Origin: a bacterium
GTDB lineage: Bacteria > Fidelibacterota > Marinisomatia > Marinisomatales > UBA1611
Assembly (NCBI GenBank): GCA_038127595.1
Contig: JAYPIC010000001.1
Location: forward strand, 19,399-83,398
Direction: 5' to 3'
DNA length: 64,000 nucleotides
In this document: piece by piece, positions 3,298 through 63,681 of the stretch
How the letters are laid out: the number at the start of each line of letters is the position of its first letter
Position numbering within the stretch: the stretch's first letter is position 1
The notes under the pieces: generated by a model
What the model was told of the DNA's origin: nothing
Databases searched by the model: none
Seen by the model: only the letters and a program-made list of their open reading frames with translations
Translations under genes and position numbers: made by a program

Positions 3298-3406
3298 TTT
3301 TTATACAAATGGAAGAAGAGTAAATGAAGATTTACCCCCCCTCGGATTCCTTTTGTAATTGAAATTTAAAACAAGAATATCACAAAGTCAAAAAGTGAAT
3401 GAAAAA

Positions 3407-4228: not shown

Positions 4229-4272
4229 TGTGCCTCCAGAAATTATATCTTACCAAAAATATAGATGATAAT

Positions 4273-5343: not shown

Positions 5344-5563
5344 TGTTATGAATTTATTTTAATATATTAATATTAAAAGCTACTATTTTTCTACGATGAG
5401 TAAACTAGATTTTTCAATTTATATCTACATATTAGAATGCGTAAAAGATTACGATTAAAAACTAGGGAAATAACAAATTTTCCGCACTTAAAGTAATTGA
5501 TTAAGTAGCGTTATTTCCTGTAAATTCAAATATATTAGTAATTTAGAGAATATTAATTTATTG

Positions 5564-5593
5564 TTGACATTAGACTAAAATATGTTTTAATAT
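5564..5593 (+). promoter_or_regulatory. Sigma70-like promoter candidate for the PEGA-protein gene
   Basis: TTGACA at 5564-5569, an 18-nt spacer, then TAATAT at 5588-5593. GGAG at 5604-5607 lies 6 nt upstream of the ATG at 5614. The promoter consensus of this lineage is unknown. Confidence 0.3.
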
Positions 5594-5613
5594 TGATTCA
5601 AGCGGAGTCCAAT

Positions 5614-7065
5614 ATGTTAAAAAATATAAAACATATCATCCTAGGTTTGTCCCTAATTATAGGTTGGGTAGAATCTTCAGTGCTTGAAGATATTAAGTAT
5701 GATCCAAAGACCAACGGTCTTATGATTAGTATAGAATATTCTGAGCCAATACCGGATGATAATATAATCGGTTGGAAGTCAGATAGAAACTGGCTTTACA
5801 TTACACTGTTAGGTGTAAAACACATAAATAATATTAGCCCAAAGTCAGATCCAAACAATTTGATTAAAGAGCTAGTTATCGATAGTTTTGATGAATCTGT
5901 TCAAATTGCTATCTTATTGACCAAGAAAATTCATTGGTACGATATAATTAACAGTGAGGGAACATCATCAGCTGTAGTTTTCATTCATACAGAAATGAAA
6001 AATAGCTTGCAGGCAAATTTGAAAAAACACTTAGATAAAAATGGTAAATCTGTGTTTTCTGTCGTATCTCAAGAGGGTTTTCCGACATACAACACTAGTT
6101 TTCAAGCCGCATTCAACAAGGCAAGAGAAGAATTAGGGCCTAATGCTCTTTTTCGTTATAAGGGCAAGCTCTATCATACAAATCATCCTAATGAAGTAAA
6201 TCAAAATGTTGCATCTGGATTTAAAGAGTTAGATGAAAAAAAATCTATCGATGATATTTTTGCTAATTACGCTTTGGCCACTAAAAAATTAGATCAGGTT
6301 TCTTCTGATGATCAATCCTCTAACGAGGATTTTAATACAGTCGATGAATACTTTGTTGATGAAGATTCTGGTCAAGAACTTTCAGAATGGTCTGATCTTG
6401 CTGAGGAAGATAAAAGTGAGAATACCAAGAGTAGTCTTTCCTTTTGGGACAGAATGACTGCAGCAAGAGAGGACGATGATAAAGCAAAACTTTTTGATAA
6501 TTTAGAATCTTCCAAGGGTCAATTAATTGAAGAACTTGCTGACCATTCAATAATTAATGATGATCTCGATGGTAGAATTATAAAAGTACCTAAAACTTCT
6601 TGGTGGCAAAAACTACCTTTCTCTTCTATTACAAAAGGAAGGTTCGGAGTTTCTAAAAAAAGGAAAAGCGATAAAGAGCTCCTTCTTGGTCAATCAGCAA
6701 TTAGAATAGATGCTAATTTGGATGGTGTACCTATATATATAGACGGCAGATACGTTGGACATACTCCTCTGAAAGCTCCCATTCGCGTTGAGCCAGGCTG
6801 GCATCAAGTTAGTGGATTTTCTCCTCAATATCTTATGTACTTGAACACTGGAACAATAGATTATGTCTCTAATGATCCTATGTTGAATAACCAAATATTT
6901 GGCACTGAAACGTTGTATGTTGAAGGAGGGAAGATTGCTAGATCTGAAATGAGGTTTGATTATGTAGGTCCTTCACTTCCGGTTAAAAAACAGGAAGGTG
7001 GTTGGTTAGTTGGTTTTCCGATTTTACTATCTTTCTTTTCTTTAATTGCATGGGGTGTGGCGTAA
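5614..7065 (+). CDS. Exported PEGA-domain protein with acidic linker and C-terminal hydrophobic tail
   Basis: Start re-set to ATG 5614 (MLKNIKHIILGLSLIIGWV signal peptide, GGAG RBS); the track start at TTG 5593 overlaps the -10 candidate. PEGA-like segment IRIDANLDGVPIYIDGRYVGHTPLKAPIRVEPGWHQV. C-terminal tail GGWLVGFPILLSFFSLIAWGVA. Confidence 0.6.
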   Translation: MLKNIKHIILGLSLIIGWVESSVLEDIKYDPKTNGLMISIEYSEPIPDDNIIGWKSDRNWLYITLLGVKHINNISPKSDPNNLIKELVIDSFDESVQIAILLTKKIHWYDIINSEGTSSAVVFIHTEMKNSLQANLKKHLDKNGKSVFSVVSQEGFPTYNTSFQAAFNKAREELGPNALFRYKGKLYHTNHPNEVNQNVASGFKELDEKKSIDDIFANYALATKKLDQVSSDDQSSNEDFNTVDEYFVDEDSGQELSEWSDLAEEDKSENTKSSLSFWDRMTAAREDDDKAKLFDNLESSKGQLIEELADHSIINDDLDGRIIKVPKTSWWQKLPFSSITKGRFGVSKKRKSDKELLLGQSAIRIDANLDGVPIYIDGRYVGHTPLKAPIRVEPGWHQVSGFSPQYLMYLNTGTIDYVSNDPMLNNQIFGTETLYVEGGKIARSEMRFDYVGPSLPVKKQEGGWLVGFPILLSFFSLIAWGVA

Positions 7066-8484: not shown

Positions 8485-9150
8485 ATGAAATTATATTTTA
8501 ATTCTAAACTTTTTCAAAAAGCATTAGCTGCTTTATCTGGGGGCTTTCTAGTTTTATTTTTGCTTGGTCATTTAGCTGGCAATTTGCAGCTATTCATACC
8601 TGGAGAATTAGGACAAAAACAATTTAACGCATATGCTCTTTTCATGACTACAAATCCTGCTGTAATTGCATTATCATATATAACATATTCATCAATTATT
8701 TTACATTCAATTTTAACGATTTATTTGGTTTTAAAGTCTAGACTTGCTAGGCCCATAGGATACCATGTTAGTACTGGAACAGGTAATAGTAGTTGGTCTT
8801 CAAGAAACATGGCTTTTTTAGGCACAATGTTATTAATATTTTTAATAATTCATTTGAGAAGTTTTTGGTATGAAATGCATTTTGGAGATATTGGACTTGA
8901 TAAATGGGGTAACAAAGATTTGCATACAGTAACAGTTACAGCCTTTGATAATATTTTTTATACTGGATTTTATGTTATTTCGATGGTGATGCTTGCATTT
9001 CATTTGTCTCACGGAGTTGGTTCAGCCTTCCAAACCTTGGGTCTTAACACTTCAAAGTATGAAAAAACAATTAACCTAATTGGGAAAGGGATAGCAGTGT
9101 TGATACCTCTAGTTTTTGCTAGTATCCCTATTACACTTTATGTTAGATAG
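8485..9150 (+). CDS. sdhC: Succinate dehydrogenase/fumarate reductase cytochrome b subunit (single-subunit b558 type)
   Basis: 221-aa polytopic membrane protein with conserved His residues ([32 protein letters not shown]). It lies immediately upstream of sdhA/sdhB and overlaps them. Confidence 0.8.
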
Positions 9151-11053
9151 TAAAATACCAAAAGGAGCATTAGCTAATAAATGGTCTGATTACAAGTCAA
9201 AAGTTCCATTAGTTAGTCCTGCCAACAAACTTAATTTAGATGTAATCATCGTTGGTACTGGTTTAGCAGGTGCTTCCGCTGCCTCATCTCTTGCTGAAAT
9301 GGGTTACAACGTGAAAGCTTTTTGTTTTCAAGATAGTCCAAGAAGAGCGCACTCAATTGCAGCCCAAGGAGGGATAAATGCAGCAAAAAATTATCAGAAT
9401 GATGGAGATAGCGTTTACAGATTATTTTATGATACTATAAAGGGTGGTGACTATAGATCCCGTGAAGCAAATGTCCATAGGTTAGCAGAAGTAAGTACAA
9501 ATATTATAGATCAATGTGTAGCTCAAGGTGTCCCTTTTGCAAGAGAATATGGTGGGACCCTAGATAATAGATCATTTGGAGGTGTCCAGGTATCTCGAAC
9601 ATTTTATGCAAGAGGGCAAACTGGGCAACAGCTTCTTTTGGGTGCTTACAGTGCTTTGAGTAGACAAATAAGCAGAGGCACTGTGCAGATGTATAATAGG
9701 CATGAAATGCTTGATGTTGTTATGATTGATGGCGTTGCTAGAGGTATAATTGCAAGAAATTTACTTACGGGCCAATATGAGCGTTACTTTGGGCATGCAG
9801 TTGTTTTGGCAACTGGAGGTTATGGCAATGTTTTTTACCTATCTACAAATGCAATGGGAAGTAACGTAACAGCTGCGTGGAAAGCGTATAAGAGAGGAGC
9901 AATGTTTGGGAATCCTTGTTTTACGCAGATACATCCTACCTGTATTCCTGTATCAGGAGATTATCAATCAAAATTAACATTGATGTCCGAATCACTTAGG
10001 AATGATGGCAGAATTTGGGTTCCTCTAAAGAAAGGTGATTCTAGGCTACCTGAGGATATTCCTGAAGATGAACGAGATTATTATCTTGAAAGGAAATATC
10101 CAGCTTTTGGTAATCTTGTCCCTAGGGATATAGCTTCTAGAGCAGCGAAGGAAAGATGTGATGATGGATATGGTGTCGGCCAAACAAAAATGGCTGTGTA
10201 TCTTGACTTTAAGGATGCTATTAATAATTTAGGTGAAGATACTGTGAGATCTAGATATGGGAATCTCTTCCAAATGTATAATAAAATAACAGGTGAAAAC
10301 CCATACAAAACACCGATGAGAATTTATCCTGCAGTACATTACACTATGGGGGGATTATGGGTAGATTATAATCTAATGACTACTGTACCTGGGTTATATT
10401 CAATTGGAGAATCAAATTTTTCAGATCATGGAGCAAATAGGTTAGGCGCCTCTGCTTTGATGCAAGGCCTTGCTGATGGTTATTTTGTTCTGCCTTATAC
10501 TATTGGAGAATATTTATCTAAAGAAATTAGGACAGATAGAATATCGACAGAGGATGAACACTTTGTTATTGCTGAAAAAGAAACAAGAAAACGGAATGAA
10601 AAATTACTCAATATTAAAGGTAAAAAAAGTGTAGAGAGCTTGCACAGGGAATTGGGTAAAATTATGTGGGATAACTGTGGAATGTCTAGAAATGAAAAAG
10701 ATTTAAAAAATGCGCTAACTCAGATAAAAGACCTTAAAAAAGATTTTTGGCAAAATATTTTTGTACCTGGTTCTGATAATGAACTAAACCCAGAGCTTGA
10801 AAAAGCGGGAAGGGTTGCTGACTTTATTGAACTAGGGGAACTTATGATCTATGACGCATTGGATAGAGAAGAATCCTGCGGAGGTCATTTTAGAGAAGAG
10901 CACCAAACTCCTGAGGGGGAAGCGCTTAGAGATGATGAGAACTATACGTTTGTTTCTGCGTGGGAATATAAAGGTGATGACAAGGTGCCAGAATTGCATA
11001 AAGAAAATTTAAATTATGAAGAGGTAACCCCTACTCAAAGGAGTTATAAATAA
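9140..11053 (+). CDS. sdhA: Succinate dehydrogenase/fumarate reductase flavoprotein subunit
   Basis: FAD-binding [15 protein letters not shown], the covalent-FAD His region [20 protein letters not shown], and [10 protein letters not shown]. Start re-set to ATG 9140 (MLDSKIPKG), overlapping the sdhC stop. Confidence 0.95.
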
Positions 11054-11806
11054 ATGAAAGAGCTAACAATTAAATTGAAAGTTTGGCGACAAAAAAACTC
11101 TAAAGACAAGGGCAGATTTGTTGATTATGATGTTCCTGGTCTTAATGAGCATATGTCTTTTTTAGAAATGTTAGATGTTTTAAACGAACGTTTAATTTCA
11201 TTAGGAGAGGAGCCAATTGCTTTTGATCATGATTGTAGAGAAGGAATTTGTGGCAGTTGCTCTATGGTGATTAACGGCAAGCCTCATGGTCCTCTGAAAG
11301 GGACAACTACTTGTCAACTGCATATGTATCATTTCAAAGATGGAGACAATATAGTAATTGAACCGTGGAGAGCAAAACCTTTTCCTGTAATTAAAGATTT
11401 AGTTGTAGATAGAACTCCATTTGATAGAATTATACAATCTGGTGGGTATATATCCGTAAATACTGGAAGTGCACCAGATGGTAATGCTATACCAATTTCG
11501 CAAGAGGATGCTTTGTATGCATTCGATGCTGCTGCATGTATTGGATGTGGTGCATGTGTTGCTGCCTGTAAAAACGCTTCAGCTAGTTTATTTGTTTCGG
11601 CTAAAGTATCTCAGTTAGCTTCATTGCCACAAGGACAACCTGAGAGAGACAAAAGAGTAGTGGCAATGGTAGATAAAATGGATGAAGAAGGATTTGGGCA
11701 TTGTACAAACACTGGAGCATGCGAGGCTGAGTGTCCTAAAGAAATTTCTCAAGAATATATAAGAAAGATGAACTGGGAATATCACAGAGCTAACATCAAG
11801 GGTTAG
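11054..11806 (+). CDS. sdhB: Succinate dehydrogenase/fumarate reductase iron-sulfur subunit
   Basis: 2Fe-2[10 protein letters not shown]; 4Fe-4S/3Fe-4S clusters [11 protein letters not shown] and [12 protein letters not shown]. Abuts the sdhA stop. Confidence 0.95.
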
Positions 11807-16467: not shown

Positions 16468-16717
16468 AATATAAGACCTCTCCGCAATGTATATGAAATC
16501 TAGTCAATTTATGTACTATCCATTAAATACAAAAGAAAATATATGCTGAATTTTGATCAAAAATAAAAAAAACTAATTTTCGGTCTTTTTCTTGGAAAAA
16601 ATGGTTCTTTAACCTATATTTTTCGCTAGAGTAAACGAGGTAAGGGAGTTTATTTCTATAATCTCCTGTAAAATAGATACGTCTTGACGTGGATAATTGT
16701 TCAAGGCAGAAAGTATA

Positions 16718-19129
16718 ATGATGCGGAAAAATAACATTATTTTTGGTATTTACTGGTGCATTTATGTATCTGTATTGTGCTATGAATCATTGTTAGGTGG
16801 TCAACTAAATAGGACTAGCGGTCTTTATGACCTTGATGGTGATGGTCATAGAGAGGTCCTAGTTATCAGTAGTTCTGATAGGATGGCTGCATTGATTGAA
16901 TTCAAAGGTAAGGTGATAAGTGACACTGTTTGGTCTTACACTCTTCCTCAAGGGACTTATTTTACAGATGTTTCCATATTAGACATTGATAACAATGGTC
17001 AGCCAGATCTTATCGCATCTTCAAAAATCAATGCAGATAGTAATGACGATGGTTGGCTTTATGTTTTTCAGGGTACAATGAAAGGTTTTTCAAATATGCC
17101 ACTGATTGCTGGTCAATCTGGTCTTGAGTTTGAAAATATCAGGCCTTTAAATCTATCAAGAGTTTATGGAAGTTCATCACAACTTTCCGTTTCATTTGGT
17201 ACTCCTGTTAGGAAGACTTTAGTTTTTAACCCCCACATCAAAAACGAACAATTGGAAATCAAAAACGCCAAGGTTTTGAGTGAACCATTAATTCAGAATG
17301 GCTTTGGCCATATGTATTCAGGCGGATTTGTTTCATTTGGCGGCAATTATGTTGCGCAATTTTCAGCAGAGATAAACACTCTTAAGGTTGCTATTTTTAA
17401 TGCAAATGAAAATTTTAAACATGTAACAACTGAAATTTTAAGTTTGGGTAATGCTAGAGGAATCATTGGAGCTGAAGTTCAATCATATAATAATTTAAAA
17501 AAAGGTGAGCAGGGGTTATTGATACCATTTAGAACCGGTGAAGTAAAAATACTTAATGTTAAATCAGGTAAAGTAAAAATAGATGATTCAGAATTCTCAC
17601 ATGAAGAATTGTTTTTAGAAATGGAAGACCCAGATAAATCAGAAATTCTAGATTTAGTGAACAATAGAATAGAATCTGGCTTTTATGACAAGACCATTAC
17701 TAAAGAAGATTATATTAATGATAATGAGTTAAAAAAGTTTGGTTTAGTTAAAAAGCCTATTGATGGGCCTACTTTAGTTGATTATTTAAATGAAGCTGGG
17801 ATAGTGAAAAAGCCTAAAGATCGTAAAAGAATTGATATTCCTGCTGAAAGTTCTGATATGAGTAGTGAAATATGGGCTGCAAAAGCATCAGTTAAAGTTG
17901 AACAGATAGACTCTACGTTGCTTTCTTTAAATGATTCTATTTTTAAAAATCCAATACCAGATGAAGATAAAGAAATTGCATTCCACAGGACAGTATTCGG
18001 GCCTTCTGATTCTGTTGCTATAGCAGAAACATGGGAGGATACATTAAGAAATGTTCTTGTCCCTGAATCCCTTGGCTTGTCTGAAAAAGAAGAAGAAAAA
18101 ACTGGTATTGACCTTTATTATGTAATGGTAATGACGCCATCCAAAGGGAATAAAGATAGATATGTTTTTGATGGTGAAGCGCCATTTGGAATAAATGTCA
18201 TGCAAGTTCCTCCAATGGGAGAAGCTACTCATTTCCAGCATAGCGTGTCTGCAAATACAAATTTTTTACGCAGGGGGAATGATTACGATTTTGCATATAC
18301 CTTAAAAGAGCAAGTCTCTGATAGTATAACTACTCTTACAATGGTTCATGATATGCAGACCAATATTATCTTTATGTCTATTTCACCAGAAGCAGATTCA
18401 ATCTCTCAATCTTATCAACCAGAAGCATTTGATCCCAAGTTATTTGAATTTCCTGATTACTTTTTTGAAGGTTTCCCGACCAGTTTAGGCATGGATTTTA
18501 AAGATAAGCTGATTAAGTTTTCTTTTGATGACTCTGGAGATAGTGCAAATTACCAGGGGCTTTACCTATCTGCAACCACCCCTTCAAACCCATCTCAATC
18601 TCTGGCTGTTTTTTTAAATGAAGGTACTTTGCAGGCCATTAGAGGAGAAGTTAAAGTTCGTGAAAATGGTTCTAAAAAAATAACCACTCAATTTGATATT
18701 GCTGGTTATCTTGAACCATCTGCTATGTTCTCTAGATTGATTCAAGAAGAGTTTTCAGATTCCCTAAAGACTAATTTACTTCAAGGTGCCTATCTAGAAG
18801 AGCCTCTCTTTGGCCCTAGTGGTAAGCTGCCAAAAGTTTCTCATGAAAGAAGAATTCCAGAAGCTCAGTTTGATCAAAAAAATCCTGATATTCCTGTAGA
18901 TCCTTTAAAAGGAATTTACCCAGAGGGTCAGGGCATCATTACAAATTCTAAAGCTAAATTAGAAACGGCTGCTCCTGAACCACAAGGCCCGGTAGATAAT
19001 CCTTCTGATCCTGATATAGAAAACGCGATCTCAAGTTCTAAATCGGATACTTTAAATCTTGAAAATGCAAAGAGTGCTTTGCCAGAATCAATCGAGATTA
19101 AGACAAATAAGCCTGAGGAAAACCGATAA
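16718..19129 (+). CDS. Large exported protein with an FG-GAP/VCBS-like N-terminal region and a Pro/Glu-rich C-terminus
   Basis: Start re-set to ATG 16718 (MMRKNNIIFGIYWCIYVSVLCY anchor). DxDGDG-type motifs are present (LYDLDGDGHREVLV, ILDIDNNGQPDLIA). The N-terminal ~130 aa resemble the N-terminus of the next gene. Confidence 0.5.
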   Translation: MMRKNNIIFGIYWCIYVSVLCYESLLGGQLNRTSGLYDLDGDGHREVLVISSSDRMAALIEFKGKVISDTVWSYTLPQGTYFTDVSILDIDNNGQPDLIASSKINADSNDDGWLYVFQGTMKGFSNMPLIAGQSGLEFENIRPLNLSRVYGSSSQLSVSFGTPVRKTLVFNPHIKNEQLEIKNAKVLSEPLIQNGFGHMYSGGFVSFGGNYVAQFSAEINTLKVAIFNANENFKHVTTEILSLGNARGIIGAEVQSYNNLKKGEQGLLIPFRTGEVKILNVKSGKVKIDDSEFSHEELFLEMEDPDKSEILDLVNNRIESGFYDKTITKEDYINDNELKKFGLVKKPIDGPTLVDYLNEAGIVKKPKDRKRIDIPAESSDMSSEIWAAKASVKVEQIDSTLLSLNDSIFKNPIPDEDKEIAFHRTVFGPSDSVAIAETWEDTLRNVLVPESLGLSEKEEEKTGIDLYYVMVMTPSKGNKDRYVFDGEAPFGINVMQVPPMGEATHFQHSVSANTNFLRRGNDYDFAYTLKEQVSDSITTLTMVHDMQTNIIFMSISPEADSISQSYQPEAFDPKLFEFPDYFFEGFPTSLGMDFKDKLIKFSFDDSGDSANYQGLYLSATTPSNPSQSLAVFLNEGTLQAIRGEVKVRENGSKKITTQFDIAGYLEPSAMFSRLIQEEFSDSLKTNLLQGAYLEEPLFGPSGKLPKVSHERRIPEAQFDQKNPDIPVDPLKGIYPEGQGIITNSKAKLETAAPEPQGPVDNPSDPDIENAISSSKSDTLNLENAKSALPESIEIKTNKPEENR

Positions 19130-19137
19130 ACAACAAG

Positions 19138-22100
19138 ATGAAATATTTTAATTACAAAATAATTTTGTCTGCTATATTTATTTTAGCATTATCATTTTTG
19201 AATGCGCAGAAGATTGTACACCTTGAAGGGTCGTATGATTTAGATGGAGATAATTTATTAGAGTTTATCTCCCTTGAGCTAGATCCTGATAAAAATGTTT
19301 TCCCAACAGTTGTAAAATACAATGAGGTTGATCAAGATGGTTATCAATCATCAATCTGGGAATTTGATGCTCCAAAGGAACTAGATGGTTATTTTGTTGA
19401 TGCAAAAATAGGTGACTTAGATGGTGATGGCATTCCAGATTTAATCATTGTAATGAATCTTTCTAGGTTTGGCACGAATTCTACGCCTCATGTTTTTGTA
19501 GCTGTATATAGCTGGGAGGATGGTTCTTTTTCTGAATTACCTTCAATTACGCTAGATATTGGAAAGCAAGACCGGTCTTTAAGGTGTAATAACTTTTCTA
19601 TGTTAGATCATGATGCTGATGGTGATCAAGAATTAGTTTTATCATTAGGTAGTCCTTATAGAGGTTTTGCAATTTTAGATTTAGACAGCCAAGGGAGATT
19701 GGTGATTATTAAAAAAATTAGACCTGATGAAATGTTAGTTGGGTCTGGGTTGCTATATTCTGCAGTTGTTGATTATGATAATGATGGCTATGAAGATTTA
19801 CTAGCTATTAGTCCTGAGGGCAATACAATAAAAGCACAGCCATTTTATAATATTGGTGGCATATTTGATTCCGGGCCTTTGATAAGAAAAAATTTTGAAG
19901 GTATAAGTGGAATATTGCATAACTCTTTCCAGCTTACTGATTGGGATGCTGATGGATTTAAAGACGTACTAGCACCATTTAGATCTGGAGATATTATAGC
20001 ATTGACTTTAACTCCTGCTACTTTAGTTATTGAAAGAGTGCCTGTCCAACCAGGTCCTCTTACTCAAATTGAAATAGCAGACTTTAACCAAGATAATTAC
20101 AAAGATTTACTGATGCTTTCATCTGATATTAATGCCTTAACAATGATTTCAGGCGAAGATGGGGGCATGGAAAGCGTTCGAAATGTTATGTCAAAAGTAC
20201 CGGAAGAGATGCAAGTCTTTTCCATGCTTCCTTTGACTAAACTTGGCAAATATACTGGAAGCACTATGGTTTCAGGTTGGGACGGAAATAGTAATTCAAT
20301 ATTTATTTTAGATTTTGGTAAGAAATCTGCTGAGTACGACCAAGGGTTTTTATTAAGCACAGATTTTATTACTGAACAGTTGCCTGACTTATTATCAAAT
20401 ATAGAGGACATACAGCCTGAAGTCCCCGAAATTTATGTTGAAGTAATCCCAGAGCAACTTCCTCAATTGCCACAACCTGAAGAAGAAGTAATTACAGAAT
20501 TAGGCGAACAAAGAATTCAAAGCGTCCCTCAAGCGCTGGATCCTACTGTCATTGAAGGCGATGTTTTGAAAGAACAGCCTAGATCAGTACCACCGAAGAA
20601 GGTCATTCGAACTCTAGAAAGTCCAAAAACTTTAAAAGAGGAAGAGATGATAGGTCAGCGACTTCCTAAGCATGTTCTTCCTCAATACATATTAACCTTA
20701 AATCAACCATTTGAGTATATGTTATTGAGGGATACTACAGAAGCATTTCATAGTTTTAGATGGCAAGTTCCGCCGCCTAAAGGAATGTTTTTTCATTACG
20801 AAAGTCAAACAATTAGATGGGTGCCAAATCAAGAGCAGTTGGATGCTTTTCCAGTATCATATTTAGTTAGGGTAAAAGTTGATGAAATTATGGAAGCCTT
20901 ATCAGCTTCTGGCAGTGTTAATCAAGAATATAAAACTGTTCCAGTTCTTGAAAGCAGAGATGAACAAGTTTGGATATACGTAAATGATCCGCCAAGATTT
21001 TTAACTCAACCTTTAGGTACAGAGTTTGTAGCTGGTGGAGTATTTCAGTACGAACCTATAGTTAGAGATAGAAATAAAGATGCATCGTTGCAATTCTTTT
21101 TAGAGGTCGCTCCGCCAGGTATGACAATAAATGATGGTGTTCTTTATTGGAAGTCTGATAGCATAAATGCTGAACAGTATGATGTCAGATTAGTGGTTTC
21201 CGATGGATTTGAGAGAGATGTCCAAGAATTTCAATTATCTGCCAGATCTGGAATTAGAATTTTATCAAAAGCGCCAACAATGGCCACTGTTGGGGAGAAG
21301 TATAATTATGATGTAAAAGTTTGGAGACAAAGAACTAGTCAAGATGCAAATTATAAATTGTTTTATGGTCCTAGTGGAATGAGAGTAGATAAGAAATCTG
21401 GATTGTTAACTTGGGTCCCAAATGAAACGCAGATCGATACAGTTGAGTATGCCTTGGTCTCCACTCATGGAGTTGCTTCAGATACTCAGTTTGTTAAAGT
21501 TTTTGTAAATCATCCTCCAGTCATCCAAAAGGCGCCAGCTCCAATGACAAAAATAAATGTAGGTGCTATTTGGGATTTTGATTTAATGGCTCAAGACCCA
21601 AATAAGAACGATAAACTCATTTATACTGCTCATATACTCCCTGAAGGAATGAGAATGGATGCACGTACAGGCCGTCTACATTGGGAGCCTTCTACTGCTC
21701 AAGTAGATTTTCATAAACTTAGAATCGAAGTTTCAGATGGCCATCTTAGTAAGTTTATTGAATCAGAATTTTTTGTGAATGCTCCTATTAAAATAGTTTC
21801 TGTACCGACAATGACTGCAACAGTCGGTGACGAATACACGTATAAACTAATGACAGTTGATAGGAATAAAGGCGCATTGCTGCCTTTTGATAAAGTTGTA
21901 AAAGTTGAGGATGTAAGTAACACTAAAATATATAGTATAAATATTTCAGATGATGTTGTAATTCAGAACATTGATAGGTTTCTTGGAGACTGGTATAATG
22001 CGAAAGAAGTTTATTACGTCAACCCAAAATATCCTGCAGATACATTAGTATCTAGAGTCAATTTGAAGCGATATGTTCAATCTGTGTTTTATGAAGATAA

Positions 22101-23013
22101 TAGACTTTGGGTCATTACCTCAACAATAAATGGTCGAACAATAAAGATTAAAGATTTTTTATGGGAATTTTTTCAGGGTAATAAGGGTAAGCCACCTCGA
22201 ATACTTGTAGAAAGAGTGAACCCTGTGCGTTTTACTTTGACTGAGTTTCCAGAAGGTATGGAGGTTGATGAATCTCTTGGTGCTATAAAATGGACACCTA
22301 AAAAATCTCAAACAGATATGCATAGAATTTCTGTAATGGTTTCTGATGGCTACACAAAAGATGAACAGATATATGAAGTGTATTCAAATCATTTACCTAC
22401 AATTATTTCAAACACACCTCGAATGGCTTTAGTTGGAGAGTTATTTAAATATCAAGTTAGGGTTGAAGATTTAAATGAAGGTGCTAACCTGAAATATAAT
22501 TTAATTAAAGGCCCTCATGGTATGCAGCTTGATAAGAGTGGAAAAATATTATGGGTTCCGAAAGCTGCACAAATCAATTATAATGATTTTGAAGTTTCTG
22601 TCACAGATGGATATGGAACTGATATCCAATCTGGAAGAATATTTATAAATAACCCACCTTCAATTATTTCAACTCCAAAGCCTGTTGGTCTTACTGGTCA
22701 TACTTGGAGGTATAAGTTAACTACTGAAGATTTGAATGGAGATAGAGTAACATATCGTGCAGTGCGATTGCCTAAATTTGCAAAATTTGATAGAAGAACT
22801 GCTACTCTTGAGTGGACCCCAAGAAAGAACCAAGATGGTGTAAATGACTTTATTTTAATGGCGGTTGACGAGCATGGAGCAACGACAACTCATGATTTCC
22901 AAGTCCATGTGTTTTACGATCCAAGTGCAAAACAATTAGTAAATAGTGGTTGGCCTTTGATGTTAACTTTTGTTGGTGTTGTTTTTGCTTGGGGCGCTGG
23001 GCAAATGAACTAG
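19138..23013 (+). CDS. Giant surface protein: FG-GAP/VCBS-like N-terminal region plus about 7 He_PIG / dystroglycan-type cadherin-like Ig modules plus a C-terminal hydrophobic tail
   Basis: Signal peptide (ILSAIFILALSFLNA/QK). FG-GAP-like motifs SYDLDGDNLLEF, IGDLDGDGIPDLII, MLDHDADGDQELV, VVDYDNDGYEDLL, LTDWDADGFKDVL and IADFNQDNYKDLL. Seven modules carry P-x-G-M-x-[VLMI]-D-x-x-[ST]G-x-[LI]-x-W-x-P ... V-[ST]-DG (e.g. GPSGMRVDKKSGLLTWVP, LPEGMRMDARTGRLHWEP, GPHGMQLDKSGKILWVP). Tail is SGWPLMLTFVGVVFAWGAGQMN. Confidence 0.6.
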   Translation: MKYFNYKIILSAIFILALSFLNAQKIVHLEGSYDLDGDNLLEFISLELDPDKNVFPTVVKYNEVDQDGYQSSIWEFDAPKELDGYFVDAKIGDLDGDGIPDLIIVMNLSRFGTNSTPHVFVAVYSWEDGSFSELPSITLDIGKQDRSLRCNNFSMLDHDADGDQELVLSLGSPYRGFAILDLDSQGRLVIIKKIRPDEMLVGSGLLYSAVVDYDNDGYEDLLAISPEGNTIKAQPFYNIGGIFDSGPLIRKNFEGISGILHNSFQLTDWDADGFKDVLAPFRSGDIIALTLTPATLVIERVPVQPGPLTQIEIADFNQDNYKDLLMLSSDINALTMISGEDGGMESVRNVMSKVPEEMQVFSMLPLTKLGKYTGSTMVSGWDGNSNSIFILDFGKKSAEYDQGFLLSTDFITEQLPDLLSNIEDIQPEVPEIYVEVIPEQLPQLPQPEEEVITELGEQRIQSVPQALDPTVIEGDVLKEQPRSVPPKKVIRTLESPKTLKEEEMIGQRLPKHVLPQYILTLNQPFEYMLLRDTTEAFHSFRWQVPPPKGMFFHYESQTIRWVPNQEQLDAFPVSYLVRVKVDEIMEALSASGSVNQEYKTVPVLESRDEQVWIYVNDPPRFLTQPLGTEFVAGGVFQYEPIVRDRNKDASLQFFLEVAPPGMTINDGVLYWKSDSINAEQYDVRLVVSDGFERDVQEFQLSARSGIRILSKAPTMATVGEKYNYDVKVWRQRTSQDANYKLFYGPSGMRVDKKSGLLTWVPNETQIDTVEYALVSTHGVASDTQFVKVFVNHPPVIQKAPAPMTKINVGAIWDFDLMAQDPNKNDKLIYTAHILPEGMRMDARTGRLHWEPSTAQVDFHKLRIEVSDGHLSKFIESEFFVNAPIKIVSVPTMTATVGDEYTYKLMTVDRNKGALLPFDKVVKVEDVSNTKIYSINISDDVVIQNIDRFLGDWYNAKEVYYVNPKYPADTLVSRVNLKRYVQSVFYEDNRLWVITSTINGRTIKIKDFLWEFFQGNKGKPPRILVERVNPVRFTLTEFPEGMEVDESLGAIKWTPKKSQTDMHRISVMVSDGYTKDEQIYEVYSNHLPTIISNTPRMALVGELFKYQVRVEDLNEGANLKYNLIKGPHGMQLDKSGKILWVPKAAQINYNDFEVSVTDGYGTDIQSGRIFINNPPSIISTPKPVGLTGHTWRYKLTTEDLNGDRVTYRAVRLPKFAKFDRRTATLEWTPRKNQDGVNDFILMAVDEHGATTTHDFQVHVFYDPSAKQLVNSGWPLMLTFVGVVFAWGAGQMN

Positions 23014-43324: not shown

Positions 43325-45508
43325 ATGCAAAATGAAAATAACTTTGTTTTACTAGTGATTTTATCTGGTATTCTTGCAATGGCTTTTGCTTTTTGGAAGG
43401 CCTCATGGATAAACACACAAAACGAGGGTAATCAGCGTATGAAAACTATTGGTGCTAGCATTGCAGATGGAGCAATGGCCTTTCTTCGTGCTGAGTATCG
43501 AATACTAGGTGTTTTTGTTGTCGCTGTAGCTCTCGTCCTTGGTTATGCAAATTCTGGGAGAGCAGATTCAAGCGCATTTATAGCTCTTTCATTCATTATT
43601 GGCGCCGTAGCTTCTGGTTTTGCAGGATTCCTAGGTATGAAAGTAGCAACAAAGGCAAACAATCGTACAACTCATGCTGCAGAAACAAGCTTGGCTAAAG
43701 CTTTAAATGTAGCATTTAGCGGCGGAGTTGTGATGGGTTTAAGTGTTGTTGGTTTAGGGGTTCTAGGCTTGGGAATTCTTTTTTATGTTTATGGGGAAAT
43801 GGGAATTTTTAACAATGACATTGAAATAATATTAAATGTTTTATCTGGATTTTCTTTAGGAGCTTCTTCTATTGCGCTTTTTGCAAGAGTTGGAGGAGGT
43901 ATTTATACAAAAGCTGCTGATGTTGGAGCAGATTTAGTGGGTAAGGTAGAGTCTGGTATTCCTGAAGATCATCCTCTTAACCCTGCTACTATAGCTGATA
44001 ATGTTGGAGATAATGTTGGAGATGTGGCTGGCATGGGAGCAGATTTATTTGAATCTTATGTAGGATCAATAATTGGATCTATGGTCTTAGGTTCAACCCT
44101 TTATGCTTACGGTGCTGGGTTTGATTTCAATTTTGTCCTGCTTCCGCTTCTAATCGCAGCATCAGGTATAGTCGTATCAATAGGTGGTACCTTTTTAGTT
44201 TCAGTCAAGGAGGGCGGGGATCCTCAGAAAGCATTAAATAAAGGAGAGTTTGGTAGCGGGCTAATAATGGTTGCGGTAATATATATTTTAATAACTTACT
44301 TTTTACCAGAAAAATTTGTTGCTCAGCAGGGTTTTGGGAAATCTTATGATAGTATAGGTGTATTTTATGCCACAGTCATAGGCCTCTTTGGCGGGCTTGG
44401 AATTGGGAAAATAACCGAATATTACACTGGAACTGGTACAAAACCAGTTGAGTCTATTTCTAAGCAATCCATGACTGGACCAGCTACTAACATTATTGCA
44501 GGTCTGGGTGTTGGTATGGAATCTACTGCAGTTCCAATTATGATAATTTCAGGTAGCATTATGGGTGCATACTATTTTGCAGGTCTTTATGGAATAGCTA
44601 TGGCAGCTCTTGGAATGCTTGCAAATACTGGGATTCAACTGGCTGTCGATGCATATGGACCAATTTCAGATAATGCAGGCGGGATTGCAGAGATGGCTGA
44701 ATTACCCAAAGAGGTTAGAGAGAGAACAGATAAGCTTGATGCTGTAGGTAATACTACCGCTGCAATTGGTAAGGGTTTTGCTATAGGTTCTGCAGCTTTA
44801 ACTGCTTTAGCGCTATTCGCTGCCTTTAAAGTTAAAAGTGGTATTGATATTATAAATATTTCTGATCCCATGGTAATGGCAGGTTTGTTCATTGGTGGTA
44901 TGTTACCTTTTCTTTTCTCTTCAATGGCGATGGGAGCTGTAGGTAGAGCCGCAATGTCAATGATTGAAGAAGTGAGAAGACAGTTCAAGGAAATTCCTGA
45001 ATTGAAAAAAGCACTTGAGATAATGAATCTTAAAAACCGAGAAGATTGGAATGAAGATGATAAGAAAGCCTACAATGATGCTATGGGAAAGGCAGAGCAT
45101 GGGAAATGCGTTGAAATTTCTACTGAGTCTGCCATTAGAGAAATGGTTTTACCAGGCCTTTTAGCAGTATCAATGCCTGTTATTGTAGGATTTTTACCAA
45201 AAATGTTTGGTAGCAATCAAGGACCTGAAATATTAGGAGGATTACTTGCAGGAGTAACAGTAAGTGGCGTATTGATGGCTATCTTTCAATCAAATTCAGG
45301 AGGTGCCTGGGACAATGCAAAGAAAATGATTGAGGAAGGCATTACAATAGATGGTCAAAAATTAGTTAAAGGCTCAGAGGCCCATAAAGCCTCTGTTGTC
45401 GGCGATACTGTAGGAGATCCATTTAAGGACACTTCTGGTCCATCATTAAATATTTTAATAAAACTTATGTCAGTGGTGTCTTTGGTAATTGCACCGTTGA
45501 TTAAATAG
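43325..45508 (+). CDS. hppA: Membrane-bound ion-translocating pyrophosphatase (K+-dependent subtype signature)
   Basis: [48 protein letters not shown] and [18 protein letters not shown]. Ala in GNTTAA marks the K+-dependent class. Confidence 0.95.
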
Positions 45509-58878: not shown

Positions 58879-60681
58879 TTATTTAATAAAAAACGTCCTT
58901 CTCCTAGTATTTATTTTTTCTTCAAGTTCGATTATTTTTTCTTTTTCTAACGGCGTCTTTTCTTCTTTAGAGCTCAATTTATCTAATTCTAATCTTAAGA
59001 ATTGGACATCACGATCAAGTTTTTCGAGACGTCCTTTCATTTGTTTAGACAACATTTTTTTAAAATCATCAATTTTATCGCTATCTGGAGAATAATAAAT
59101 ATTCGTATTTCCTCGATCAGTGTCTTCCCAAAATGTTGGGCCACTAAATTTGATTCTATTATATAGTCCTTCCATTAAGTTCAGATAAGTTTGATTGTCA
59201 AAATAAGCAAGGTCATCAAGTACATCTGCAACAATGGTCTCTGCAAAATCAAGGTTTTTAATTTTTATATAATGAAGAGCTAGTCCAATTTGTAATACTC
59301 GCACGCCATTATTTACGCTTTGATCTAGATCATCTTTTGGATAATCTGGAGGATTATCAAGTTGTAAAATTTCTTTTAATAAATGTTCCTGCAGCTCGAG
59401 GTCCCAATTTTTTTCAGAAATGATGATAGATATCTTTTTTAGTTCAGTAGTTAATACATCTACAATAAAATATAGCGAAGGGTTGTTAGCTGCTTGTTTA
59501 TAAATTTCATTACTATAGAATTTGAAATAGAAGTATCCCATTTTTAGCAAATCAATTTTATTTTTATCAACATAACCTTGCAAAAGAGTTGAATAGTGGA
59601 ATGCTAAATTGTATAAATTCCTTGGTTCATTATTTCTGACTGCATGCTTTATTGCAAATCTCATAAATGTATTAAATCTTATATTAATATCCGTAATTAA
59701 ACTATCTTGTTCGAGTTCTAAGGCTAAAAGCCCTACTGAGCTAATTTCATTAGCGATAAGAGAAGCTAGTTCATATTCTCCGTTCTCCATTTTTCGTATA
59801 TATGCATTACCCATCATTTTAAAAGATTTTACTTCGTAAAATGTTTTTCTATCTTCTATATCTTTATATTGGTGTTCAACATATGTTCTGAAAGTTGGAT
59901 TATTTCTAATGGTATCTGTAGCAGTAAAAAATTTTGGATCATAGGAATCCTTGTTCATCATATACACTCTTACTGTATCACCAACCCGTCGAATGATTTC
60001 TGTTTGAGCCTCTTTGAATGATATATATTCAAGTAGGTCATCGAATTGATCTATAGTAGACATTAATTGATGCTGATAATGTTCAATAACTCTACTATCA
60101 TTCATTGTAAGTTGTACGGGCTTTTGCTTTAACCTTTTTATGTCAGCAATATTCAGCGAATAGAGTTTTCTAATTACATTATCTGTTTTTGAATAGAGTA
60201 AGATGTAAAATATGTATGGCAATGATAAAACAGAAGATAGGGGAAGGTAAATGTAAGTATTTAACATGACACTAGATAGCCTATCCATTGGTTCAAAATA
60301 GTACATAATTATTGTTGAATGAATAGACGCAAGAATTAAAAACCATATGAAGATAAGACTTATCCAATCTCTAACGAACAGGTCCATCAATTTTGGAGTG
60401 GATTCTGCTGCTATTGCAATGACAATTATCAATGTACCTAAAACTGTAGCTAATACTCCTCCCCATATTTCGGGTGCAAAAGTGAGGTCTACGGCTCCAT
60501 GAGCTTCTTTGTTAATATCAAAGAATTGTTCAAGGAATAAAATGACTTGTGGATAAAGCTGATGAAATAAAGAATCGCTTATGAGAATGACTAAAAAAAC
60601 GATTAGTAAGGAGGCTAGCGATCTGTTTCTATTTATCAGATTCAATGTATTTGCAAAAAATATTGTAATATTACTGTTCAT
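58879..60681 (-). CDS. Uncharacterised membrane protein: N-terminal multi-TM module plus ~430-aa helical cytoplasmic region plus C-terminal coiled coil
   Basis: About 5 hydrophobic helices in the first ~170 aa; the remainder is helical and Tyr/Asn/Lys-rich. C-terminal heptad-like GRLEKLDRDVQFLRLELDKLSSKEEKTPLEKEKIIELEEKI. No family confidently recognised. Confidence 0.5.
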   Translation of the reverse strand: MNSNITIFFANTLNLINRNRSLASLLIVFLVILISDSLFHQLYPQVILFLEQFFDINKEAHGAVDLTFAPEIWGGVLATVLGTLIIVIAIAAESTPKLMDLFVRDWISLIFIWFLILASIHSTIIMYYFEPMDRLSSVMLNTYIYLPLSSVLSLPYIFYILLYSKTDNVIRKLYSLNIADIKRLKQKPVQLTMNDSRVIEHYQHQLMSTIDQFDDLLEYISFKEAQTEIIRRVGDTVRVYMMNKDSYDPKFFTATDTIRNNPTFRTYVEHQYKDIEDRKTFYEVKSFKMMGNAYIRKMENGEYELASLIANEISSVGLLALELEQDSLITDINIRFNTFMRFAIKHAVRNNEPRNLYNLAFHYSTLLQGYVDKNKIDLLKMGYFYFKFYSNEIYKQAANNPSLYFIVDVLTTELKKISIIISEKNWDLELQEHLLKEILQLDNPPDYPKDDLDQSVNNGVRVLQIGLALHYIKIKNLDFAETIVADVLDDLAYFDNQTYLNLMEGLYNRIKFSGPTFWEDTDRGNTNIYYSPDSDKIDDFKKMLSKQMKGRLEKLDRDVQFLRLELDKLSSKEEKTPLEKEKIIELEEKINTRRRTFFIK

Positions 60682-61380: not shown

Positions 61381-61413
61381 ACGATGCCTGGGTTAATCCC
61401 AGGTATCGTTTTT
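61381..61413 (+). terminator. Rho-independent terminator downstream of the TerB-like gene
   Basis: ACGATGCCTGGG (61381-61392) pairs with CCCAGGTATCGT (61398-61409). This gives a 12-bp stem with one G-U and a 5-nt loop TTAAT. It runs into the T tract TTTTT (61409-61413). Confidence 0.6.
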
Positions 61414-61437
61414 ATTAATTTAAATAGGAATACGAAT

Positions 61438-61593
61438 ATGTCTGAAAAAAGAACACACAGTGACGATAGACGAAATAACGACCGCAGAAATGCCGATCGA
61501 AGATTAAGCAATGTAACAGTTGAAAATGATAGAAGAACTGATGGAGATAGAAGACAAGATGAGCGCCGTTCTGTAAAGGACCGACGCTCATAA
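61438..61593 (+). CDS. 51-aa (D/E)RR-repeat microprotein
   Basis: MSEKRTHSDDRRNNDRRNADRRLSNVTVENDRRTDGDRRQDERRSVKDRRS. Seven D/E-R-R triplets are encoded by different synonymous codons (gat aga cga / gac cgc aga / gat cga aga / gat aga aga / gag cgc cgt / gac cga cgc), arguing for selection at protein level. AGGAA lies upstream of ATG 61438. The track start at 61384 lies inside the terminator stem. Confidence 0.4.
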   Translation: MSEKRTHSDDRRNNDRRNADRRLSNVTVENDRRTDGDRRQDERRSVKDRRS

Positions 61594-61606: not shown

Positions 61607-62281
61607 TTAACAGTAGACTCTTTCCATTCCTGATAGGAAATTATTTAAAGAAGATAATGCAAGTTCAATAGCTTCTAACGCTTCTTCTTTCTTTTCATCA
61701 GTATCACAAACATCGCCAATCAAATCTTTAATAACTTGCCTGTGAATGATATCTGCAGATTGATGCACCTCAAAGAACTTTAATGTGTCCTCACCATTTT
61801 TAGCACCGTAATATTTCTTTAAACCGTCAATTTTATTTTCAGCAATTTCAGGGATCATAGATTCATAACAATAAAGAGCACTGAATCCAACATGGTAACG
61901 CTCGTCTTTTGATAGTTTCATAAAATTGTCTACCAGCTCTTTTGTTTCTTTTATTGCCACAGTATTTTTTACATCTTTTCTTTTTTTACCCATGCCTTCT
62001 GCAAAACGCATCCATAATTCTGGATGATTTTCATCACCACGCTCTTCATCGATTAAGTTTTCTAGAATTTCTTGTCTTACTGATATATCATCACAGTTTG
62101 AGTGGATTGATGATAAATATCTAGGGAAAGCAGAAACATGTTTAAAATATTGGGCAGCATATTCTTGAATGGTAGATCGATCTAATTCACCTGCATTCCA
62201 AGCTTTATAAAAAGAGTGATTTAGTAAATGATGCTCTTCAATTTTGTTTTCAACTATGTTTAAAAATTCAGTTTTGTTCAT
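61607..62281 (-). CDS. CADD-type heme-oxygenase-like di-metal oxidase (PqqC/TenA-fold; candidate p-aminobenzoate synthase type)
   Basis: HHLLNHSFYKAWNAGELDRSTIQEYAAQYFKHVSAFPRYLSSIHSNCDD ... NLIDEERGDENHPELW ... YCYESMIPEIA ... EVHQSADIIH. This is collinear, as far as I recall it, with the Chlamydia CADD (CT610) family. It includes the E...H, E and H-x3-D-x2-H metal-ligand spacing. Start re-set to ATG 62281. Confidence 0.75.
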   Translation of the reverse strand: MNKTEFLNIVENKIEEHHLLNHSFYKAWNAGELDRSTIQEYAAQYFKHVSAFPRYLSSIHSNCDDISVRQEILENLIDEERGDENHPELWMRFAEGMGKKRKDVKNTVAIKETKELVDNFMKLSKDERYHVGFSALYCYESMIPEIAENKIDGLKKYYGAKNGEDTLKFFEVHQSADIIHRQVIKDLIGDVCDTDEKKEEALEAIELALSSLNNFLSGMERVYC

Positions 62282-62310: not shown

Positions 62311-63591
62311 TTATCCTAGCCATATACCGGCACAGAAAAATAACCCCGTTAGGAAGTGTAATCCAATAGTTCCTGCATTAGCAGGCTGTAATAATCTATT
62401 GTCATAATGCTTGTATAATGTTTTTATCGTAAAAATACTGTAAACTGATGTTATTAACGACACAAGGGATAATGTTGGGAAAGTAAGTGGGTTAGTCCAG
62501 GATAATGCAATGATGCTAACAAACGCCCCTACGATTAATGCAACGTATCCTATCCTTGCTTTCTCTGGCCCAAAAACAACGACTAAATTATTTTTACCGG
62601 TTGCTTTATCACCATCATGGTCAGGAAATTGATTAACGAAAACTATAGCAGCTACTAGAAAGCCTATTGGTATCCCTGCAAATACTGCATCCATGATATG
62701 GGTCATGTCACCACTTGTTTGCACAAGAAAACTACCAGCGACCATTAGTGGTCCAAAATTTAAACCAATTAAAAGCTCTCCCATCCCTTTTCTAGATGCA
62801 AATCTAAATGGTGGGGCTGTATAAAAAAGACCGGAAAGAAATCCAACGATCCCAAGATACAAAATGTTTATGCCTGCTTTATAAATAAGAGGTATACCAA
62901 CAATAGCACTTAAAGCAAAAGTTATTATAGCAACATTTAACATACCTTTAGCTGAGATAAGTCCCATTTGAATACTCCTACTTCCTCCTGAAAAAGGCAC
63001 CATGTAGTTGTAATTTGCTTCATCTGTCCCACTAGTGTGGTCGTAATAGTCATTCGATGTGTTTGTACCTATGTGCAATAAAAATCCGCCTAACATTGTT
63101 AAAGTAAAATAAAACCAATCAATACTTACAAATCTACTTGCTACAGCTGCTCCTAAAAGGATTGGGACAATTGTTGCAGTTAAAAACGGTAGTCTCATTA
63201 TCACCATCCAACTAAATAGCTTTGTTCCAAAACTGATTTTTGGACGGACTTCATCTGCAGACTTATCAGATAGTGGAGAGGTTACACCACAATAGCCGAT
63301 GTGGTTACCTTCCTTATCTTTGGTGGGTGTAATTTTAATTTTGCAAGGCAATTCGGTTCCATCTTTGTGTAAAAAAACAGTGTTTCCTTCCCAAGCTCCT
63401 TTTTCAACGGACTCTGCAAGCCAATTAACTACATGGCCTAATACAATTTGACCAGCACTGAAATCGCTCACCCTACCTTTGCCAATAATTTCTTCTTCTG
63501 TGTATCCGAATAATTGCTGCGCACCTTCACTAAACGTTTCAATTTTACCATCAAGGTCGCAGGTTATTACGCTTTTTAAATTTTTACTCAT
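62311..63591 (-). CDS. PAS domain fused to a MenA-like UbiA-family polyprenyltransferase
   Basis: N-terminal ~115 aa carry the PAS pattern (ITCDLDGKIETFSEGAQQLFGYTEEEIIGKGRVSDF ... FLHKDGTELPCKIKITPTKDKEGNHIGYCGV). This is followed by about 8 TM helices with both UbiA Asp-rich motifs in the MenA form (NDYYDHTSGTD; DHDGDKATGKNNL). Start re-set to ATG 63591. Confidence 0.8.
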   Translation of the reverse strand: MSKNLKSVITCDLDGKIETFSEGAQQLFGYTEEEIIGKGRVSDFSAGQIVLGHVVNWLAESVEKGAWEGNTVFLHKDGTELPCKIKITPTKDKEGNHIGYCGVTSPLSDKSADEVRPKISFGTKLFSWMVIMRLPFLTATIVPILLGAAVASRFVSIDWFYFTLTMLGGFLLHIGTNTSNDYYDHTSGTDEANYNYMVPFSGGSRSIQMGLISAKGMLNVAIITFALSAIVGIPLIYKAGINILYLGIVGFLSGLFYTAPPFRFASRKGMGELLIGLNFGPLMVAGSFLVQTSGDMTHIMDAVFAGIPIGFLVAAIVFVNQFPDHDGDKATGKNNLVVVFGPEKARIGYVALIVGAFVSIIALSWTNPLTFPTLSLVSLITSVYSIFTIKTLYKHYDNRLLQPANAGTIGLHFLTGLFFCAGIWLG

Positions 63592-63681
63592 AATATTTAT
63601 TTCCCTTATCTTTAAAAATATTAAGCTTTTAAATTTAGCTCTCAATATTTTCTTAGAACGAAACATATTTTAATTTTTTTT

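Follow-up and report, generated by a model that had tools for sequence, protein, structure and literature searches.

MenA prenyltransferases are the closest described relatives of the protein considered here. These enzymes of the UbiA superfamily (models TIGR00751 and NF004751) carry two Asp-rich motifs, NDxxDxxxGxD and DxxxDxxxGK, on a nine-helix core. The nearest solved structure, by both sequence and fold, is UBIAD1, the animal menaquinone-4 synthase, which has no sensor domain and plays its regulatory role by binding HMG-CoA reductase. As for PAS domains on polytopic membrane proteins, the KCNH/hERG channels have an N-terminal cytoplasmic "eag" PAS domain for which no cofactor is known and which is believed to work within its own molecule. 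In the menaquinone pathway, 1,4-dihydroxy-2-naphthoate (DHNA) feeds back on MenD, the first committed and soluble enzyme, by allosteric inhibition at a dedicated pocket (PMC9835592, PMC12421875). Here we describe a gene on the minus strand, positions 62311 to 63591, of a 64,000-nucleotide stretch of low-GC DNA (~33%) from a SAR406/Marinimicrobia bacterium (contig JAYPIC010000001.1 of assembly GCA_038127595.1; hereafter the window). With a probability of roughly 0.6, we read it as the cell's menaquinone-branch MenA-type prenyltransferase, whose polypeptide chain also includes an N-terminal PAS domain as regulatory module.

Compared with MenA, the window protein shares both Asp-rich motifs, the nine-helix core and, among its relatives, quinone-related neighbours. 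It differs by the addition of an N-terminal PAS domain of 108 amino acids (aa) and a linker, and it scores just below the TIGR00751 cut-off and well below those of the PRK-derived models, with DHNA as a putative substrate. Identity to UBIAD1 is 23%. The likeness to KCNH/hERG is an analogy of design and not close homology, as the output there is an ion channel and not an enzyme. If the PAS domain regulates, the protein would resemble MenD in that a metabolite of the menaquinone pathway controls one of its enzymes post-translationally, but with a sensor-type domain set on the membrane prenylation step.

The mechanical open reading frame on this strand runs from 62311 to 63666 and would encode 451 aa. 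We prefer the ATG at 63591 (MSKNLK...), because orthologues have 424-429 aa, the 25-aa extension is not conserved and a promoter-like site lies inside it. Pfam coordinates below follow the 451-aa numbering, and residues of features and motifs the 426-aa numbering. The features of the gene are as follows.

62311..63591, minus strand: complete PAS-UbiA gene, 426 aa plus stop codon at 62311-62313 (open reading frame list, Pfam PAS_9 and UbiA, orthologue lengths)
63268..63579, minus strand: N-terminal PAS domain, predicted cytoplasmic, aa 5-108 (Pfam and TIGR00229, AlphaFold2, Foldseek)
63451..63474, minus strand: family-specific PAS motif R40-V-S-D-F-S-A-G47 (consensus of 22 fusion proteins, alignment to phototropin-2 LOV1)
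63193..63267, minus strand: linker and amphipathic helix, aa 109-133 (AlphaFold2 secondary structure, invariant columns)
62314..63192, minus strand: UbiA/MenA-type intramembrane prenyltransferase domain, aa 134-426, nine long helices (Pfam, NCBIfam, fold)
63022..63063, minus strand: Asp-rich motif 1, N177-T-S-N-D-Y-Y-D-H-T-S-G-T-D190 (sequence and family invariance)
62593..62634, minus strand: Asp-rich motif 2, N320-Q-F-P-D-H-D-G-D-K-A-T-G-K333 (sequence and family invariance)
63618..63645, minus strand: possible promoter-like site TTGAGA-16-TAATAT upstream of ATG 63591 (consensus scan, weak evidence)

No riboswitch or other RNA was found near the gene with Rfam.

The C-terminal part belongs to the UbiA superfamily. 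It matches UbiA (PF01040) over residues 166-421 (E-value 1.2e-30; 107.1 bits against a cut-off of 34.2) and has, on the cytoplasmic side, the two Asp-rich motifs that bind Mg2+ and diphosphate in this superfamily, along with the fold of about nine transmembrane helices. The AlphaFold2 model has nine long helices after the PAS domain, with a predicted local distance difference test (pLDDT) of 89 and a predicted template modelling score (pTM) of 0.85. Among NCBIfam models, the ten best matches are nine DHNA-prenyltransferase models and the generic prenyltransferase PRK05951, with MenA models at 95-151 bits versus 43 for ChlG, 19 for UbiA_other and 17 for CyoE. The structure of UBIAD1 (8djk) is matched with an E-value of 8.6e-11 by sequence and of 5e-8 by Foldseek (template modelling score, TM, of 0.75 over the target); other Foldseek matches of the enzyme are digeranylgeranylglyceryl phosphate synthase, AfUbiA and ApUbiA.

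The core of motif 1 reads N180-D-Y-Y-D184-H-T-S-G-T-D190 and that of motif 2 D324-H-D-G-D328-K-A-T-G-K333. Across 22 fusion proteins with 30-90% identity, N177, N180, D181, D184 and D190 are invariant, as are N320, P323, D324 and D328, while G332 and K333 are nearly so. The catalytic core is intact. The TIGR00751 cut-off is passed by the nearest stand-alone relatives and by two other fusion types; for the window protein, "MenA" stands as the best homology assignment and not as a class membership.

The N-terminal part is a PAS domain. Residues 32-126 match PAS_9 (PF13426) with an E-value of 3.6e-12 and 46.9 bits against a cut-off of 27, and PAS (PF00989; 28.8 against 22.6), TIGR00229 (40.1 against 22.9) and PAS_3 are also above their cut-offs. 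The AlphaFold2 model, with pLDDT ~90 in this region, has a five-stranded sheet (7-12, 16-20, 67-74, 80-91 and 97-106) flanked by four helices. By Foldseek, the best structural match is 3lyx, a PAS domain whose ligand is unknown (root-mean-square deviation 1.3 Å, TM 0.82), followed by NifL 2gj3, many LOV domains and Aer 8dik. Sequence-profile matches include the PAS domains of FixL, DosP and hERG.

The nearest structural neighbours after 3lyx are therefore flavin sensors (LOV, NifL PAS1, Aer), but the window protein differs from them at the flavin-contacting residues and the photoactive Cys. In the alignment to phototropin-2 LOV1, the positions of the LOV motif N-C-R-F-L-Q are occupied by V41-S42-D43-F44-S45-A46, and the flavin-contacting Asn, Asn and Gln of strands G, H and I are replaced by F73, C83 and T104; neither GxNCRFLQ with its photoactive Cys nor the Asn/Asn/Gln set is present. 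The proximal His of FixL and DosP, on the F helix, was not found either: FixL alignments break at this helix, and His53 is variable in the family. The ligand, if any, is probably neither a flavin bound in the LOV way nor a heme bound in the FixL way. The initial annotation, made from the sequence of the window without database searches, had proposed direct ligand or redox control of the enzyme; this proposal keeps its conditional form, as neither the LOV flavin residues nor the FixL heme His are conserved and no ligand can be named.

At the site of the LOV flavin motif, the 22 fusions have a conserved motif of their own, RVSxFSPG, along with W57, K76-D77-G78 and G99-Y-C-G102. Apart from the UbiA fusions, the closest PAS domains among the best 150 representatives belong to generic multi-PAS proteins and share at most 27% identity. 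Because of these motifs and this distance, the PAS subtype looks dedicated to the prenyltransferase enzyme. The strongest match outside UbiA fusions (P0121, 26% identity) is a protein of 4799 aa with 31 PAS-like stretches. A Cys11-Cys101 disulfide switch was considered as a family-wide mechanism and rejected: Cys11 is common, Cys101 occurs in about half of the proteins, and the two do not co-vary.

In terms of topology, the PAS domain is predicted to be cytoplasmic and to adjoin the active-site face that holds both Asp-rich motifs. This placement follows from the lack of any signal peptide or helix ahead of the PAS domain, from the charge bias (11 Lys and Arg in PAS-side loops versus 1 on the opposite side) and from the position of both motifs at helix ends on the PAS side, in the sequence and in the two-domain AlphaFold2 model (pTM 0.85). 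The 25-residue linker and amphipathic helix has 5 Lys/Arg and ends in an invariant R133-x-x-F136 before the first transmembrane helix. These results bear out most of what the initial annotation had said of the protein itself: a cytoplasmic N-terminal PAS fold and a MenA-like enzyme with two Asp-rich motifs of the MenA form, in one reading frame starting at 63591 and encoding 426 aa. All peptides quoted there are present in the sequence.

The fusion is genuine and under purifying selection across the phylum. In a scan of one genome per species, 31 loci, mostly from Marinimicrobia/SAR406, encode the protein, the majority of them over its full length, with 67-99% identity. The closest orthologue, at 99% protein identity, is from the metagenome-assembled genome (MAG) MED-G177, and the next, at 96%, from a Marinimicrobia single-cell genome. 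All of the top 120 database clusters have the PAS+UbiA architecture; marine metagenomes, Tara included, contribute many of them, and a few clusters contain hundreds of members. Between 25 Marinimicrobia orthologues, mean pairwise identity is 0.78 for the PAS part and 0.774 for the UbiA part, and in long-range comparisons the PAS part is better conserved (75-82% versus 64-71% for the catalytic part). The ratio of nonsynonymous to synonymous substitution rates is 0.01-0.1 in both domains, where synonymous sites are not saturated. A frameshift or assembly error that joined two separate genes, which the initial annotation had named as a way in which its reading could fail, retains practically no probability: the same uninterrupted frame is found in 31 independent assemblies, including a single-cell genome, the fusion recurs in hundreds of metagenome clusters, and purifying selection extends across the junction. 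Two MAG labels among these loci, "Chloroflexota" (L009) and "Gammaproteobacteria" (L023), are probably the result of mis-binning, as their proteins are 71-94% identical to the window protein, like Marinimicrobia orthologues.

We then looked at the spread of the architecture in 1.84 billion representatives at 50% identity, of which the best 150 clusters were analysed. About 25 PAS-UbiA clusters are found, down to 30% identity. Named members come from a second Marinimicrobia clade, Dehalococcoidia/Chloroflexota and Marine Group II Euryarchaeota, as well as from Micrarchaeia, Cryomorphaceae and Pseudomonadota MAGs; the more distant fusions, those of Chloroflexota, Marine Group II and other MAGs, have 30-50% identity. 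The Marine Group II version (L032-L034, 10001-11626) is 43% identical and has an EF-hand pair ahead of PAS and UbiA, with 541-551 aa in total. A neighbour-joining tree of the catalytic domain clusters 16 of 20 PAS-fused representatives together; this tree is rough and supports only that most PAS fusions group together. Databases name the fusion MenA, by automatic annotation, or "hypothetical" only, and the literature search found no paper on a PAS-UbiA prenyltransferase fusion, in line with the earlier statement that none was known to be characterised. The architecture is undescribed but not rare. Of the earlier caveat that it might prove already described and common, only the second part applies, since it is common in marine metagenomes.

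PAS is not the only N-terminal domain on these enzymes. Beside the 25 PAS-UbiA clusters, 22 of the best 150 carry other N-terminal domains of 140-200 aa: 13 are PNPOx-like, 4 H-NOX-like and 5 unassigned. The view that UbiA/MenA enzymes are normally stand-alone is thus too strong for this clade. The PNPOx-like split-barrel fusions (P0140, P0144, P0148 and 10 related clusters) include one cluster with a protein from a MAG of Nitrososphaerales, an ammonia-oxidising archaeon. In the H-NOX-like fusions (P0138, P0171, P0210 and P0213), the N-terminal domain has ~185 aa and an AlphaFold2 pLDDT of 83, and resembles the H-NOX of K. algicida in Foldseek (E-value ~1e-3, TM 0.69); no invariant His was found among the four sequences. 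H-NOX is a heme-NO/O2 sensor. By hhalign, none of these three N-terminal families is related to PAS or to another of the three, and for two of the three no Pfam match was found. Ligand-binding-type cytoplasmic domains have therefore been acquired several times, independently, by MenA-type enzymes. Of the indirect arguments for a PAS domain that is regulatory and not decorative, this recurrence of sensor-type fusions is the strongest.

As for gene context, orthologues and relatives repeatedly lie next to quinone-related genes. In three Marinimicrobia species (L007, L026 and L030), a MenI/YdiI-like hotdog thioesterase, below its own cut-off, is encoded directly upstream. In another Marinimicrobia clade (L035-37), PAS-UbiA is the last gene of a trp/shikimate operon. 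Elsewhere, a polyprenyl synthetase gene is directly upstream (L044), sdhA and sdhB are directly downstream (L042), or UbiE and UbiB are encoded near a distant PAS-UbiA (L046). The window itself encodes genes of the 2-C-methyl-D-erythritol 4-phosphate (MEP) pathway and, at 8485-11806, a b558-type single-subunit SdhC adjoining SdhA and SdhB (TIGR02046, 140 bits against a cut-off of 96), so that the single-cytochrome-b succinate:quinone oxidoreductase proposed earlier is confirmed. Because of this repeated context and the MenA-type homology, a respiratory-quinone prenyltransferase is the best reading of the enzyme, with DHNA the likeliest acceptor. The literature search found no statement on the quinone pathway of Marinimicrobia/SAR406.

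Some neighbourhoods hold further genes. In L046, at 2429-6969, an EboD-like 3-dehydroquinate synthase (551 bits), EboE (459 bits), an O-methyltransferase and a Dabb protein are encoded, a mixture of ebo and quinone genes. A 648-aa fusion of a Rieske domain with a PoxB-like thiamine pyrophosphate enzyme lies two genes downstream of PAS-UbiA in L038 (6783-8729); it was considered as MenD and rejected, being PoxB/pyruvate-oxidase-like. UbiE/MenG was likewise rejected as the identity of a methyltransferase encoded close to the gene of Marine Group II. In L032, of Marine Group II, a separate CREG/HugZ-like barrel protein and a flavodoxin adjoin PAS-UbiA. On a flavobacterial-type contig (L040/L041, 8001-17290), PAS-UbiA is part of a light-related island with rhodopsin and beta-carotene dioxygenase (blh) genes, two photolyase/cryptochrome genes and a CarH-like regulator combining MerR and B12-binding domains.

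The immediate neighbour in the window is the following gene.

61607..62281, minus strand: CADD-type self-sacrificing 4-aminobenzoate synthase, 224 aa, probably co-transcribed with PAS-UbiA (TIGR04305, PDB matches)

It lies 29 nucleotides downstream of PAS-UbiA, with no terminator-like site between the two. The protein scores 277 bits for TIGR04305, against a cut-off of 200, and matches PDB 9pj4 (E-value 3e-53) and CT610 1rcw (2e-45). The Tyr of its H-x-F-Y motif is kept in the 9pj4 alignment and corresponds, via the Ct peptide, to the sacrificial Tyr27; the profile and this residue assign it to the CADD-type synthases. In 12 of the 31 loci, CADD adjoins PAS-UbiA in the same direction. It follows PAS-UbiA in L001-6, L022, L023 and L025 and precedes it in L008, L012 and L014, and this adjacency is more persistent than usual for chance neighbours. 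We read it as a leftover aromatic/cofactor gene neighbourhood or as co-regulation. Just past the window end, in the same organism, L001 has at 5819-6610 a second heme-oxygenase-like protein, between GcvP and an MtaB-like gene; it is DUF3050-like by eye, with no NCBIfam match, and two heme-oxygenase-like proteins would then flank PAS-UbiA.

Other genes of the window deserve a brief mention. At 61384-61593, on the plus strand, a putative Arg/Asp-rich open reading frame of 69 aa with repeated DRR motifs lies between the TerB-like and CADD genes; it is conserved (53-91%) in L001, L002, L006 and L023, and a terminator-like hairpin (61381-61409) overlaps it. Beside the TerB-like gene, several Marinimicrobia loci share, at 77-99% conservation, a protein of 600 aa (58879-60681, minus strand) that has hydrophobic segments at its N-terminus and matches nothing in Pfam. 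Very large surface-type proteins are encoded at 214-5343 and 16697-23013: one with MORN repeats (1027 aa), one with RHS repeats, and two of the FG-GAP/He_PIG type (810 and 1291 aa). Lastly, a membrane-integral pyrophosphatase (43325-45508, plus strand) passes the Na+-translocating equivalog, with 1109 bits against 1059.

Read as a PAS-regulated MenA-type prenyltransferase, the protein would join a naphthoate head group, in all likelihood DHNA, to a polyprenyl chain. Its PAS domain may bind a cytoplasmic small molecule or switch with redox, with DHNA, a naphthoquinone or quinol, or another redox-linked metabolite as rational candidates. The short linker and the amphipathic helix that precede the first transmembrane helix would relay the signal and so gate entry to the catalytic chamber, and quinone output could in this way be tuned post-translationally at the membrane-committing step. 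Several observations weigh against this reading. Every curated MenA equivalog cut-off is missed (TIGR00751, 94.8 against 102.15; NF004751, 151 against 264; the others lower), and no other men gene was found among the ~45 window open reading frames scanned. The PAS domain is not needed for catalysis, because close stand-alone relatives such as P0127 (52% identity, genuinely without PAS) exist. In the wider family, PAS invariance is limited to G15, with D12 nearly invariant, and the LOV and FixL comparisons revealed no known cofactor motif and did not demonstrate a conserved ligand site. These last points would suit a PAS domain that does no sensing and serves as a structural module, for dimerisation, as a docking cap or to recruit upstream soluble enzymes such as a DHNA-CoA thioesterase, comparable to the eag PAS domain of KCNH/hERG channels, for which no ligand is known: D12 and G15 are generic scaffold residues, the hERG PAS domain is among the profile matches, and the relative placement of the two domains is confident in the AlphaFold2 model. 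We regard such a role as possible, though not the one to expect, given that the clade-specific RVSxFSPG occupies the very position of the ligand contacts in PAS domains and that the folds found in the parallel fusions (H-NOX-like, PNPOx-like, EF-hand) are classical ligand binders, which points to sensing.

The missed MenA cut-offs also bear on the acceptor. Together with the CADD adjacency, in either gene order, and the O-methyltransferase and ebo-like genes next to the distant L046 member, they would agree with an acceptor other than DHNA, for example CADD-linked 4-aminobenzoate or another tyrosine-derived ring, leading to a different quinone or lipid. This is unlikely, as CADD looks like an ordinary synthase of 4-aminobenzoate for the folate pathway and many orthologues have no CADD nearby. 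The remaining contexts are classically menaquinone or respiratory (MenI-like thioesterase, polyprenyl synthase, UbiE, succinate dehydrogenase), and the closest stand-alone relatives pass the menA model. We hold it very unlikely that the PAS domain is a flavin or heme sensor of light, oxygen or redox, of the LOV, NifL, Aer or FixL kind, coupling menaquinone synthesis to light or oxygen in surface-ocean plankton. The replaced LOV residues, the break of the FixL alignment in the heme-binding helix and the variable His53 speak against it, whereas the NifL, LOV and Aer structural neighbours, the FixL and DosP profile matches and the gene inside the rhodopsin, blh, photolyase and CarH-like island of L040 speak for it.

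What sets the size of the quinone pool in microbes is poorly understood, and the post-translational control known so far targets MenD, a soluble enzyme. If a sensor acted on the membrane enzyme through which the head group is committed to the lipid phase, the mechanism would differ from this one and lend itself to direct tests; being soluble, the PAS domain can also readily be screened for ligands. SAR406/Marinimicrobia have the fusion as a core gene, and it has relatives in Marine Group II archaea; therefore, any control would act in very abundant ocean microbes that inhabit oxygen gradients. The parallel fusions with H-NOX-like, PNPOx-like and EF-hand domains suggest a general principle and not a one-off. 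Taken further, and only tentatively, MenA-type prenylation might be a general control point of respiratory-quinone supply, directly coupled to one-component sensors, with the PAS domain binding DHNA, a quinone or a redox signal and gating the enzyme. The H-NOX-like, PNPOx-like and EF-hand+PAS versions would then be repeated evolutionary arrivals at this solution. If true, this control point would be previously unrecognised, and some of the most abundant heterotrophs of the ocean would adjust their quinone content post-translationally to oxygen, redox or metabolite cues.

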